A stretch of DNA of 64,000 bases from Candidatus Harrisonbacteria bacterium (GTDB lineage: Bacteria; Patescibacteriota; Minisyncoccia; UBA6257; 1-14-0-10-40-38): NCBI GenBank assembly GCA_023245035.1, contig JAHFLD010000004.1, forward strand, positions 13,496-77,495, read 5' to 3'. A program made the translations under genes and the position numbers. Of this stretch, positions 7,741 through 28,014 are shown in pieces. The notes beneath the pieces are model-generated. The model was not told the DNA's origin, did not search any database, and was given only the letters and a program-made list of their open reading frames with translations. How positions within the stretch are numbered: the first letter of the stretch is position 1; each line of letters begins with the position of its first letter.

Positions 7741-8068
7741 CCTCCTTGAGATTGGACTGATCCGAAACGCTCGGATAAGCGACTACCTCAACACAAGGCA
7801 AGTCTTCCTTTACTAAACGATTTCTGGAAATCAACACCCGATACAACTTATTTAGACTTGAATGGCGCGTTTATAGAAAAATACTTAGGAAAGGGAGACT
7901 TGCCTCGTGTGGCTGAATTAAAGCTTGTTTTTGCTAGGTTTTTAAGGAACCCACGTATTCTAGCACTATATGGTTAGATATGTCAACTTGGTGGGTTTGA
8001 TTAAATAACTTGCGGATAAGTTAATTTTTTGCTACAGTTTGGTGGCTTTTTAATCAATTCGGGACTTT

Positions 8069-17649: not shown

Positions 17650-17720
17650 GCTCCCATAGCTTAGTGGTAAAGCAGCTGCCTTTTAAGCAGTTGACCTTGG
17701 TCCGATTCCAAGTGGGAGCA
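17650..17720 (+). tRNA. tRNA-Lys (anticodon TTT)
   Basis: Hand-folded cloverleaf: acceptor GCTCCCA/TGGGAGC, D-arm GCTT..AAGC, anticodon loop CTTTTAA, T-arm CTTGG-TCCGATT-CCAAG, discriminator A. CCA is not encoded. Confidence 0.85.
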
Positions 17721-17744
17721 CTGAATTTGTTTCCATGATTTTAG

Positions 17745-17773
17745 TTGACATCTTTTTGGGGTTTGATTATAGT
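17745..17773 (+). promoter_or_regulatory. Near-consensus sigma70 promoter TTGACA-17-TATAGT
   Basis: TTGACA at 17745-17750, a 17-nt spacer, and TATAGT at 17768-17773. Confidence 0.55.
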
Positions 17774-17779
17774 CTTTTT

Positions 17780-17977
17780 ACTTACTGACAACTCGCATGA
17801 ATCGGGGTCGCTTGGCGAGGGAAAGAAAAACCAGTAAGGACTCGCTCCTTGAAAACTTTTATACCAGCCTCGGGGCGACTGCAGCGCGGCCGAGGAAACG
17901 GGTAATTGGAAACCTGGTTGCGGGTTAGATTTGTCATCCCACTCCCGTTAGTCTTCGGACTGGCGGGAGTTTTTTTA
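17780..17977 (+). ncRNA. Candidate small RNA of ~200 nt (6S-like or other sRNA), with its own promoter and terminator
   Basis: No ORF. It is bounded by the promoter above and the hairpin CTCCCG...CGGGAG plus T8 at 17942-17977. Internal helices include CCTCGG...CCGAGG. Confidence 0.4.
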
Positions 17978-18055
17978 TTTATTGAAATTTTTTTGATTTT
18001 GGATTATGCTCTGCCTTAGTTCTTGGTTTTTCTAGCAATCAAAAGGAGCGCGCCT

Positions 18056-18346
18056 ATGTTTGACTGGCTGGCCGGAATTTTTTCGGAGGCGCCGAAAAAG
18101 GAAGATAAGAAGAGGGTGCACTTGGTGATGTACTTGACCCCAGAGATTAAAGATCGAATCTTGCGGATACAGAAAGAAAGTGGCGCGAAGGATGTAGCGG
18201 TGTTGTTGCGTTGGGTATTCGCAGTTTATGAGGAGTTGCTTGAAATCGAGAGGAACAACGGCATTGTGATTGTTGAAGATGCCGACGGACAGAAGAAGCG
18301 CCTGCTTATTCGCCCAAAAAAAACAGCAGGAACCCCAGCCACTTAG
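18056..18346 (+). CDS. Hypothetical small protein
   Basis: An AAAGGAG RBS sits 8 nt upstream of the ATG at 18056. It is preceded by TTGAAA-17-TATGCT. Confidence 0.4.
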   Translation: MFDWLAGIFSEAPKKEDKKRVHLVMYLTPEIKDRILRIQKESGAKDVAVLLRWVFAVYEELLEIERNNGIVIVEDADGQKKRLLIRPKKTAGTPAT

Positions 18347-18385
18347 ACTTAGCCGAACCCCGCAAAACCGCGGGGTATTTTTTTG

Positions 18386-19474
18386 CTATAACTCCCCCTC
18401 CAGATCTTCCAGGAGTTTTTTGGCCTTCGGGGAAATTTTTTGCGGAACATTCACGTCCGGATAAATTATCAGGCGTCCGCGGCCATAACCGCCCAGGCGC
18501 GGCATGCCGGAACCGGACACGATTACCGGATCGCCAACTCGCGCGCCACGCGGAATTTCCAGGCCTACTTTTTCGCCGGCAATGCCGTCAATGACAATTT
18601 TGCGCCCGAGCAGGACATCGGCAAGTTTGAACTTGCGACGGGTTATAAGATCGTCTCCATCGCGATCAAATAACTCGTGCTTTTGAACTCTGACTCGCAC
18701 ATAGAGATCGCCTGGGTCGGCGCCACGTTCGCCAACTTCTCCGCCCTTTTGAATCTTAATCAGCTGGCCATCCATAATTCCCGGGGCGATAGAAATATCT
18801 ACCGTGCGCTCGCCCTTAACCCGTCCGGTGCCGGCGCAGGTTCGGCAAACTTTTTTGGGAATTTGACCGGTGCCGGAACATTTCTCGCAGGCGCGAACTT
18901 GTTCAAAACTGCCAAAAAAAGTATTGCGCACTTCTTTAATCTCTCCCCGGCCGTTGCAGGTGGCGCAGTCGGAAAATCCCTCCTTGGCAAAGTGGCCGAC
19001 TCCGGAACATTCTTGGCACTGAACATAAGTTTTGTAAGCTAAGGGTTTAACCGCCCCGCGGAAAGCTTCTTCTAGCGTGATGTCTTGCACATACTCCACA
19101 TCGGAGCCGTGGCGATAGGTTTTGCGTTTGCGTTTTACGCCCAGACCTTCAAAGAAGGAGTCAAACATATCGCCAAGATTGCCAAGATCGCCCATGTTCA
19201 CATTGCCAAAATCAAATTCAACGCCAAACGGGTTTTGCCCGCCGAAACCGGCGCCTCCAGATTGACCGTCAAAAGTCTGGCCGAAGCGGTCGTATTGCGA
19301 TTTTTTTTCGGGATTGGAAAGCACCTGATAGGCCTCGTTGATTTCTTTGAACTTGGCTTCGTTGCCACCGGCCTTGTCGGGGTGATGCTTGTGCGCCAAA
19401 GTACGATAGGCCTTTTTTATCTCTTCAACCGAGGCGCCTTTTTCCAAACCGAGGATTTTGTAGAAGTCTTTCAT
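18386..19474 (-). CDS. dnaJ: Molecular chaperone DnaJ
   Basis: J-domain KDFYKILGL...HPDK and four CxxCxGxG zinc-finger repeats. Confidence 0.9.
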   Translation of the reverse strand: MKDFYKILGLEKGASVEEIKKAYRTLAHKHHPDKAGGNEAKFKEINEAYQVLSNPEKKSQYDRFGQTFDGQSGGAGFGGQNPFGVEFDFGNVNMGDLGNLGDMFDSFFEGLGVKRKRKTYRHGSDVEYVQDITLEEAFRGAVKPLAYKTYVQCQECSGVGHFAKEGFSDCATCNGRGEIKEVRNTFFGSFEQVRACEKCSGTGQIPKKVCRTCAGTGRVKGERTVDISIAPGIMDGQLIKIQKGGEVGERGADPGDLYVRVRVQKHELFDRDGDDLITRRKFKLADVLLGRKIVIDGIAGEKVGLEIPRGARVGDPVIVSGSGMPRLGGYGRGRLIIYPDVNVPQKISPKAKKLLEDLEGEL

Positions 19475-26374: not shown

Positions 26375-26475
26375 ACTAGATACAATACTTCTATTCCGGG
26401 ATAGCCCCGCCTACGCCAAGAGCTTTGGCGGGCAGGTCAGCGATATATTCAACCGCTATCCCGAAATAGAAACAT

Positions 26476-26547
26476 TCCGGGATAGCTCAGCGGTAGAGCG
26501 GCGCGCTGTTAACGCGAAGGTCGCAGGTTCGATCCCTGCTCCCGGAG
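26476..26547 (+). tRNA. tRNA-Asn (anticodon GTT)
   Basis: Hand-folded: acceptor TCCGGGA/TCCCGGA, D-arm GCTC..GAGC, anticodon loop CTGTTAA, T-arm GCAGG-TTCGATC-CCTGC, discriminator G. Confidence 0.85.
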
Positions 26548-28014
26548 CCCGATTGGTTGATTAGCGAAAGTGAGGATCGTACTAAATGGTTCTCGTAGCG
26601 TAAACACTGGCTTTCTGCCGTTTACGATTGAGTTCTGAAGTAGATAGTTGAGAAACTTTCGTTTTTCGGGAACTTCCGAACCTTTAAATATTTCGAGCGC
26701 GTTCTTGGCGAGATTTAGCACAGTAGAAGCGGTATTGTAATAGTTTTCATCGGCTTGGGTATGTTCTTCAAGGTGCAGGTTAATTTCGTACTGTCGTTCT
26801 TTTAGTTCTTTAAACTTCTTGTCATAGTCGTCCTTAGTAATACTACTGTCGAGCAGTAAGTCCATAAGCCGATCTATTTTGACCTGTACTAGGTTGTATT
26901 CCTTCTGAAAGCTATCTACTGCGTTTTCGTGATACGAGGTTTTAGATTCGTTGCTACGCCGCAAACCGGTTACTACTTCATCTATCTTCTCCTGTGGCAT
27001 GGCCTTAAATGCCCCTAGGATGTCGTAGATTGGCTTCAAGAGCTCTCTTTCGGGTATGTATAGCTTTTCTTTGCACAAGTCTTTTTTGGCGTTCGTACAA
27101 CTGTAGTAAATATATTTCCCTTTAGCGGTTTCCGGACTCATAGCGCACCCGCATTTACCACAGCGAAGCAGTCCTCTAAAAATATGAGGCTTGGCCGCAT
27201 ATTGGAACGGCTTCTTGCCCCAACCCTTCCTAATCTCTTGGCACCGATCAAAAAGCTCTTTAGTAATGAGGGGCTGATATTTATGAGGATACAGCTTGCC
27301 CTTGCACCTCATAATGCCGTAATAGAATGGGTTACTTAAAATAAAATTAACCATGCTGAAAGCTAACGGCTTCCCCGTCTTACTTTTCAAACCATCTTTA
27401 GCTATGGCAATCCTTACTGTTTTGCCTGAATGATTTCCCGTGGCGTATAGCTCAAACATTTTGCGGATTAAATGCGCTGTATTTGGATCGGGAATTATAT
27501 CTTTCCTTAATCGCTTCTCGGCGTCCAAAGCGATGTTCTGATAGCCCATCGGCGCTTTGCCCGTCCATTCTCCGTTTCTTCGCTTCTGCTCAAACTTTCT
27601 TTTAACATTATCGCTCAACTGGAGGACATAACTTCTTGCAAACATAACAGCCATATCCCAACGGAGCAATTCCGAACTGTTTGAGTTTTGGCCTAAAACT
27701 AAATTTTCACGATAGAAATGAATTTCGAGCTTGCCAACTTTCCTAAGCTCATCTAACAGCACCGATTCTTTAAAGCTTCTTTGGAGCCGGTCAACAGTAT
27801 CAACCACGAGAGCGATCGGCTCCTTGGAGTCTTTTATGACTTCAACTACTTCTTGAAAGCGCTCTCTGTCGCCGGTAGTCGAGGATTCTTCAATTTCGTA
27901 TGTTTTCCAAACTGAAAGCCCTTTGAATTTCACATAATCAGAAACACGGACTACCTGCGCTTCATTTGAGTCCTGTTTTTTGTCTGATACACGGGCTAAG
28001 ATGATGGCTTTCAT
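26509..28014 (-). CDS. Large serine recombinase (resolvase N-domain, recombinase domain, zinc ribbon)
   Basis: N-terminus MKAIILARVSDKKQ carries the catalytic Ser. A CGKCGCAMSPE...YYSCTN zinc ribbon follows. The 3' end overlaps the tRNA-Asn antisense. Confidence 0.85.
   Translation of the reverse strand: MKAIILARVSDKKQDSNEAQVVRVSDYVKFKGLSVWKTYEIEESSTTGDRERFQEVVEVIKDSKEPIALVVDTVDRLQRSFKESVLLDELRKVGKLEIHFYRENLVLGQNSNSSELLRWDMAVMFARSYVLQLSDNVKRKFEQKRRNGEWTGKAPMGYQNIALDAEKRLRKDIIPDPNTAHLIRKMFELYATGNHSGKTVRIAIAKDGLKSKTGKPLAFSMVNFILSNPFYYGIMRCKGKLYPHKYQPLITKELFDRCQEIRKGWGKKPFQYAAKPHIFRGLLRCGKCGCAMSPETAKGKYIYYSCTNAKKDLCKEKLYIPERELLKPIYDILGAFKAMPQEKIDEVVTGLRRSNESKTSYHENAVDSFQKEYNLVQVKIDRLMDLLLDSSITKDDYDKKFKELKERQYEINLHLEEHTQADENYYNTASTVLNLAKNALEIFKGSEVPEKRKFLNYLLQNSIVNGRKPVFTLREPFSTILTFANQPIGLREQGSNLRPSR

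Follow-up and report, generated by a model that had tools for sequence, protein, structure and literature searches.

The window analysed here, a stretch of 64,000 nucleotides, contains a tRNA-Lys(UUU) gene on the + strand (17650..17721), which is detected both by the Rfam tRNA model (72.8 bits) and by ARAGORN and has no encoded CCA, and a dnaJ gene on the - strand (18386-19474). Between them, both on the + strand, lie a predicted sRNA transcript of ~197 nt (17780..17977), whose 5ʹ end was placed from its -10 box and whose 3ʹ end was placed from its T-run, and an orphan open reading frame (ORF) of 96 aa (18056..18346), to which dnaJ is convergent. The initial annotation had placed the sRNA region downstream of a tRNA-Lys gene, and the gene is confirmed here as tRNA-Lys(UUU); its end lies 24 nt from the -35 box of the sRNA. 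What lies in the interval from tRNA-Lys to the 3ʹ end of dnaJ (17722-18385) varies among members of this CPR clade, and here it is the sRNA and the ribbon-helix-helix (RHH)-like gene.

The window is identical to metagenome contigs from ENA and Logan (L001-L003), and its dnaJ gene marks the source as a member of the Patescibacteria/CPR. The closest genome, L004, is labelled ‘uncultured Candidatus Saccharibacteria’ and encodes a DnaJ protein that is 89-90% identical to that of the window, and its tRNA-Lys(UUU) gene is 100% identical. The relatives that follow have DnaJ proteins that are at most 70% identical and carry Parcubacteria-type names. A third member of the DnaJ cluster, which resides on a 1.3-kb contig, was left out.

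Two side observations concern the tRNA genes. Sub-threshold matches to the Rfam model ‘Plastid-ycf2 5ʹUTR’ (32 bits) run antisense to tRNA-Lys, at 17650-17721 on the - strand of the window and at 7901-7972 of L004, and these were dismissed as an artefact since that model resembles a tRNA complement. A second tRNA gene, tRNA-Asn(GUU), resides at 26475-26550 of the window. Its 3ʹ part is covered by a mechanically called ORF (26509-28014, - strand), so that the protein-coding gene probably starts more internally than called.

Promoter, terminator and conservation of the sRNA region

A TTGACA-17-TATAGT element had been noted at 17745-17773 from the sequence, and it is indeed present on the + strand. 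A -35 box (TTGACA, 17745-17750), a 17-nt spacer and a -10 box (TATAGT, 17768-17773) together match the promoter consensus at 11 of 12 positions. A scan of the whole 64-kb window recovered eight sites that match at 11 or more positions, this one among them, compared with a mean of 1.0 in shuffled sequences, which corresponds to an 8-fold enrichment of strong matches. When the scan coordinates were compared with the ORF list, several of the other seven sites were found directly upstream of ORFs. The enrichment and these placements indicate that the organism uses near-consensus sigma-70 promoters, and the candidate at 17745-17773 is among the best such matches in the window. The L004 counterpart reads TTGACA-16-TAGAGT, with a TG at the equivalent place and a spacer that has diverged to 55% identity.

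The downstream boundary is formed by an intrinsic terminator (17941..17977, + strand), which is confirmed with slightly different limits from the hairpin and T8 run first proposed at 17942-17977. Its stem (ACTCCCGTTAGTC-TTCG-GACTGGCGGGAGT, 17941-17970) comprises 13 bp, seven of them G-C, carries a UUCG tetraloop, and is followed by T7 at 17971-17977. This terminator is 90% identical in L004, where the one change in the stem converts a U-G pair to a C-G pair. A C-rich stretch (CCCACUCCC / CCCCCUCCC) is located immediately 5ʹ of it. The -35 hexamer, the -10 hexamer and the terminator all keep their positions in L004 and in L040, a contig from Hainich groundwater whose sRNA is identical to the L004 type.

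The roughly 200 nt enclosed by these signals had been described as free of ORFs, and the comparison with L004 bears this out. The interval ~17780-17977 holds only mechanical ORFs of 30-51 aa, none of which is conserved in L004. L004 lacks the ATG at 17797 with which the longest + strand ORF opens, and the two versions of the region differ further by several 1-nt indels; these differences indicate that the region is non-coding. At the nucleotide level, the sRNA region is 81% identical between the window and L004, whereas six other intergenic regions are only 47-68% identical. The value is close to that of the dnaJ and dnaK coding sequences (81-85%), and the third codon positions of dnaJ differ at 44% between the two lineages. 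Thus, as judged from two distinct sequences, the sRNA region is shown to be under purifying selection. Particularly well conserved are a block UUGAAAACUYUUAUACCAGCCUCG (17849..17872, + strand), in which 23 of 24 positions are identical, and a second block, GGGUAAUUGGAAACCUGGU (17900..17918, + strand), which is identical in both lineages.

RNA structure

Of the two helices originally picked out by eye, CCTCGG...CCGAGG and ACCAG...CTGGT, the former is well supported as an apical hairpin (17868..17895, + strand) with a conserved 7-nt loop, NCUGCAG (17878-17884). This hairpin appears independently in the single-sequence MFE structure of both homologs. Between these two sequences, it carries three double compensatory changes (G-C to U-A, G-C to A-U and G-C to U-G), one one-sided change (G-C to G-U) and no broken pairs. 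The ACCAG...CTGGT strands are invariant in both sequences and so offer no covariation, and there are two copies of ACCAG, at 17830-17834 and at 17864-17868.

Folding the region together with a homolog, a check suggested at the outset, gave a similar result for the molecule as a whole. In the two-sequence comparison, 51 of the 58 pairs of the window MFE structure are kept in both RNAs with five double compensatory changes, whereas slid-partner controls keep 14-24 pairs with zero or one double change. The folding z-score of the window is -2.06 for the + strand and -1.05 for the - strand, and that of the L004 homolog is -4.24, where none of 200 shuffled sequences folds as well. Two observations point to the + strand as the functional one, namely its better z-scores and the presence of G-U pairs within the stems. 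Although covariation drawn from only two distinct sequences is thin, this predicted RNA is shown by such comparisons to be structured at the RNA level on that strand.

Beyond the apical hairpin, two global arrangements compete. In fold B, a 5ʹ hairpin domain (17781..17838, + strand) is closed by pairing between CUUACUG (17781-17787) and CAGUAAG (17832-17838); within this domain lie an inner hairpin, CUCGC...GCGAG, and a loop rich in A. One pair of the inner stem changes from A-U to G-C between the lineages, and the second domain of fold B is closed by a second copy of CUCGC. In fold A, a long-range helix (17791..17925, + strand) formed by ACUCGCA (17791-17797) and UGCGGGU (17919-17925) closes the molecule, and RNAalifold applied to a manual alignment assigns it two double changes (A-U to U-G and C-G to U-A) and one co-deleted pair. 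Fold B is the MFE structure of the L004 homolog, in which fold A is ~12 kcal/mol worse, and in the window it is within 3 kcal/mol of the MFE structure. The two folds are mutually exclusive and, on the evidence of two sequences, are supported about equally.

The motifs that permit both pairing schemes are repeated within the sRNA: CUCGC (twice), GCGAG and GCGGG are distributed over 17791-17797, 17815-17819, 17842-17846 and 17920-17924, and the duplicated ACCAG adds to these repeats. Only three parts of the predicted structure are regarded as secure: the terminator, the apical hairpin and the invariant extension of this hairpin (UUUAUACC / GGUA..UGGA).

The downstream gene and the distribution of the sRNA

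The 96-aa ORF begins 78 nt past the sRNA terminator, has a good Shine-Dalgarno sequence, and accompanies the sRNA in both lineages. A candidate promoter of its own (TTGAAA-17-TATGCT, 17982..18010, + strand) matches the consensus at 9 of 12 positions, and the equivalent in L004 (TTGAGG-17-TATGCT) does so at 8 of 12. This candidate is included in the 44 nt downstream of the sRNA terminator, from 17981 to 18024, which are 86% conserved by manual count. The ORF has a terminator of its own (18357..18376, + strand) ahead of the convergent dnaJ gene, and L004 has an equivalent of it. The start, stop and length of the ORF are identical in both lineages, amino acid identity is 64%, which marks the protein as fast-evolving, and the differences at the three codon positions are 26/11/37. 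By these features the ORF is a real coding gene.

Only two close homologs of the ORF were found among 5.8 billion proteins. A HMMER profile search, in addition, reached ~26 remote relatives of ~75 aa each, and hhalign joins the 96-aa ORF to this family with 99.5% probability. Within the family, 8 of 28 aligned members match Pfam RHH_1 (PF01402; best E = 4.9e-6) and 18 of 28 match the phage family phrog_8557, whereas the ORF itself matches neither. Through this profile link, we list it as a putative remote member of an RHH (CopG-like) family. An AF2 model built on the 28-sequence alignment is confident (pLDDT 83.6) and predicts two helices and a C-terminal beta-hairpin, while a model built from two sequences is poor (pLDDT 46). 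Foldseek comparison of the monomer model with the PDB returned nothing significant, and a sequence search of the PDB returned nothing.

Remote homologs of the ORF have no related RNA upstream: P0145 is part of a tightly packed operon, and the DNA that precedes P0149 bears no relation to the sRNA. The pairing of sRNA and ORF thus appears specific to the lineage of the window and L004. Some features of these homologs are of separate interest. P0145 (L055, 347-664), which belongs to a tight cluster of small genes, shares with the ORF a hydrophobic N-terminal motif, MF(D/A)WL..(I/L)F (window 18056-18090), an extension that is missing in most members of the ~75-aa family. P0149 (L056 and ENA contigs) lies ~770 nt upstream of genes for an OLD-family ATPase/TOPRIM protein and a UvrD helicase, a Gabija-like defence pair, and is itself preceded by a gene-free stretch of 786 nt with a TTGACA-16-CATTAT promoter.

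The distribution of the sRNA is narrow. Searches with nhmmer found it in the identical contigs L001-L003, in L004 and in L040, with no paralog in the window or in any collected locus. An exact 18-mer of the GGGUAAUUGGAAACCUGGU block had 12 matches in metagenome contigs, of which one, that in L040, is true. Four pattern scans of viral contigs gave chance matches only, a distant blastn comparison with phages and plasmids recovered no copy, and covariance model R1 found nothing in the loci of CPR relatives. In the dnaJ neighbourhoods of relatives whose DnaJ is 59-70% identical, either there is no cassette or the contig does not reach far enough. Two of the relatives (L005 and L006) have tRNA-Lys immediately beside dnaJ with no sRNA cassette, L007 has a 304-aa gene between the two, and L052 has yet another gene there. 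The searches of large collections consisted of the one exact 18-mer and the dnaJ neighbourhoods, such that divergent copies elsewhere are beyond their reach. As far as the collections were searched, the sRNA is shown to be confined to one genus-level CPR/Patescibacteria lineage.

A further difference between the lineages is found at the tRNA end of the interval. L004 carries an insert of 145 bp between tRNA-Lys and the sRNA promoter (7756-7916, - strand) that is absent from the window and whose two ends are marked by a 16-bp direct repeat of the 3ʹ end of tRNA-Lys (TTCCAAGTGGGAGCAC). Direct repeats of tRNA 3ʹ ends are the type of scar left by integrative elements, and the insert resembles either a miniature element or a scar of the att type. 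Two short GC-rich hairpins lie within the insert. The att-like repeat in L004 and the variable content of this spot together suggest that the cassette arrived with a mobile element, and the sRNA and RHH genes may be what is left of a phage or integrative element. The cassette itself lies outside the repeat-bounded insert of L004 and contains no integrase or other mobile-element gene.

Interpretation and comparison with known systems

The initial annotation had suggested 6S RNA or another housekeeping sRNA, and this suggestion is not supported: no model matches, the fold is not a rod, and the RNA was found only in two close lineages. At gathering thresholds, cmscan matched no Rfam family except tRNA. 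The covariance comparison with 6S, SRP, RNase P and tmRNA models that had been proposed as a check was run, and cmscan of isolated stretches of 701 nt and 167 nt gave no match to these families, or to any riboswitch or leader, even at E<=10. 6S RNA (RF00013) is similar in size and is likewise encoded by an autonomous gene. However, the folds predicted here are two-domain or multi-branched rather than a rod with a central bubble, and forcing a 6S-like closing stem yields strongly asymmetric strands (5ʹ ~59 nt versus 3ʹ ~9 nt). The sRNA also differs from 6S RNA in having a separate terminator hairpin and in not being found at the equivalent locus in relatives.

Other families were set aside on comparable grounds. 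Bacterial SRP RNA (RF00169 / RF01854) is not matched, and the apical loop is NCUGCAG rather than GNRA. tmRNA is not detected in the window by ARAGORN or by Rfam. RNase P RNA (bacterial A/B, archaeal T) is not matched, the P4-like region lacks a bulged U, and L004 does not keep the CR-I-like motif, since the ‘GAGGAAAG’-like sequence of the window is replaced there by GAGAGAACG. The neighbouring tRNA, an A-rich loop and a UGG had prompted the idea of a T-box, for which there is no model match, and the downstream gene is unrelated to an aminoacyl-tRNA synthetase. The best near-match in Rfam other than tRNA is the L10 leader (RF00557; 21.9 bits, E = 0.29, against a gathering threshold of 44). This weak alignment owes its score largely to the terminator hairpin and to stretches rich in A and U, it vanishes when the terminator is removed, and the downstream gene is not rplJ. 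Near-matches to PyrR and to assorted sRNAs are likewise mainly the terminator.

We favour, by a modest measure, the reading that the region is an independent accessory sRNA gene, which belongs to no known RNA family and is not a housekeeping gene. The initial proposal of a stand-alone sRNA gene is in this respect upheld by conservation above the intergenic baseline, by hexamers and a terminator that remain in position, by compensatory changes, and by the lack of a conserved ORF. Its actual transcription is deduced from these signals. A highly divergent housekeeping RNA of the CPR lineage (6S RNA, or an SRP or RNase P RNA in reduced form) that escapes Rfam detection is, in our view, most improbable. 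The size (160 nt plus terminator) and autonomy of the gene would fit, CPR RNAs are often divergent, and the pair GAGGGAAAGAAAAACCAG ... GGGUAAUUGGAAACCUGGUU with the adjacent CUGGUU/GCGGG strands loosely recalls, by eye, what we take to be CR-I / L15 / CR-V of Escherichia coli M1. An RNase P-like topology would nevertheless cost 18 kcal/mol in L004, where the CR-I-like motif is also lost, and the failure of these families to match the isolated region at E<=10, the lack of a tmRNA and the mismatch with the 6S rod all speak against such an identity. The tRNA-Lys/dnaJ site of relatives, moreover, is without the sRNA, which argues against a conserved housekeeping gene at that locus, though a copy elsewhere in those genomes is possible.

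The same promoter and terminator could instead belong to a cis-acting leader or attenuator, such that transcription begins at the strong promoter, stops at the terminator, and proceeds by regulated read-through into the mRNA of the RHH gene; such a leader would be riboswitch-like or would respond to a protein. The sRNA and ORF are adjacent, share a strand and co-occur in both lineages, the promoter candidate of the ORF is weak, and the RNA has two alternative folds with covariation support, as in switches. These folds, however, leave out the terminator and lie upstream of it. The terminator itself is very strong (13 bp, UUCG loop, T7), and a search for a conserved antiterminator to its 5ʹ arm was negative: even the strongest duplexes are weak, and they are differently placed in the two sequences. 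The conserved 44 nt past the terminator carry -35/-10-like hexamers at 17-nt spacing in both lineages, which favours separate initiation for the ORF, and neither the remote ORF homologs, which lack such an upstream RNA, nor the searches for riboswitch and leader families, in which the L10-leader hit is essentially the terminator, lend support to a leader. We judge a purely leader function unlikely, and less likely than an independent gene. It is very doubtful that there is no functional RNA here at all, and that the region is a DNA-level element (an attachment or recombination site, or the remnant of a replication origin or single-strand origin from a small replicon that encoded the CopG-like protein) or reflects recent divergence. 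The tRNA-adjacent position, the att-like repeat in the sister lineage L004 and the phage association of the RHH/CopG-like protein family would suit such an element. Yet the identity of the region stands clearly above the intergenic baseline, the stems carry compensatory substitutions with G-U pairs that make the structure strand-specific, and a promoter and terminator that are both conserved in position bracket exactly the conserved block.

If the region is an independent sRNA gene, then its strong sigma-70-type promoter would drive the synthesis of a structured RNA of ~197 nt that stops at the intrinsic terminator, and the gene would form with that of the small RHH (CopG-like) regulator a two-gene cassette between tRNA-Lys and dnaJ. 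The RNA would most likely act in trans, through UUGAAAACUYUUAUACCAG, GGGUAAUUGGAAACCUGGU and the CUGCAG loop, and its invariant segments may bind a protein or target RNAs. The location of these segments in predicted internal loops and the palindromic CUGCAG loop suggest protein, tertiary or kissing contacts over seed pairing. In a duplex scan against the translation-initiation regions of the window, which is a crude method, the sRNA performed no better than shuffled RNA. Two complementarities to the 5ʹ untranslated region of the ORF were also noted: AGAAAAACCA (sRNA 17824-17833) is perfectly complementary over 10-11 nt to UGGUUUUUCU (18024-18033), which lies ~10 nt upstream of the Shine-Dalgarno sequence, and CGCUCCUU (17843-17850) is complementary to the Shine-Dalgarno region, AAGGAGCG. 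Neither is conserved in L004, and so both are treated as chance.

It seems quite improbable that the sRNA represents the first example of an undescribed class of structured RNA from CPR bacteria or their mobile elements, in which the long invariant internal-loop segments and the two mutually exclusive folds with covariation support would speak for a switch or a protein-binding RNA that works with the adjacent phage-type RHH regulator. If true, the cassette might serve an integrative element directed at tRNA-Lys as its immunity or regulatory module. The immediate significance is modest, given an orphan RNA with two known sequences, and would be raised if further homologs revealed that a switch is conserved or that the RNA is tied to mobile elements of CPR. 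The literature searched contains essentially no described regulatory RNAs for CPR/Patescibacteria, and a well-delimited sRNA gene is thus a useful candidate for validation in metatranscriptomes. The sRNA could also be the starting point for covariance-model searches of CPR genomes from groundwater, and its combination with a phage-type RHH gene at a tRNA integration site is a hint that mobile elements bring regulatory cassettes into such reduced genomes.

Among known systems, generic stand-alone trans-acting sRNA genes, exemplified by the Gram-positive RsaE/RoxS type with its sigma-70 promoter and Rho-independent terminator, share with the present candidate a promoter, a terminator hairpin with a U-tail, the lack of an ORF and a length of 100-250 nt. 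Conserved unpaired segments, a lineage-restricted distribution and a C-rich stretch before the terminator are further points of likeness. The sRNA described here differs in having no family similarity, and its long invariant internal-loop segments look suited to protein binding or tertiary contacts.

RNAs paired with RHH repressors are known from mobile elements: the sar RNA of the P22 immI region accompanies Arc/Mnt, and RNA II of pMV158 accompanies CopG. A further phage RNA, c4 of P1, is located upstream of icd-ant. The RNAs of these systems are antisense or complementary to the mRNA that they control, whereas the sRNA described here lies upstream of the RHH gene on the same strand, in a cassette without other mobile-element genes. 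What the systems have in common is a small RHH gene beside a small structured RNA in a compact cassette, and here too the ORF family is phage-associated (phrog_8557) and the tRNA-adjacent site fits an integrated element.
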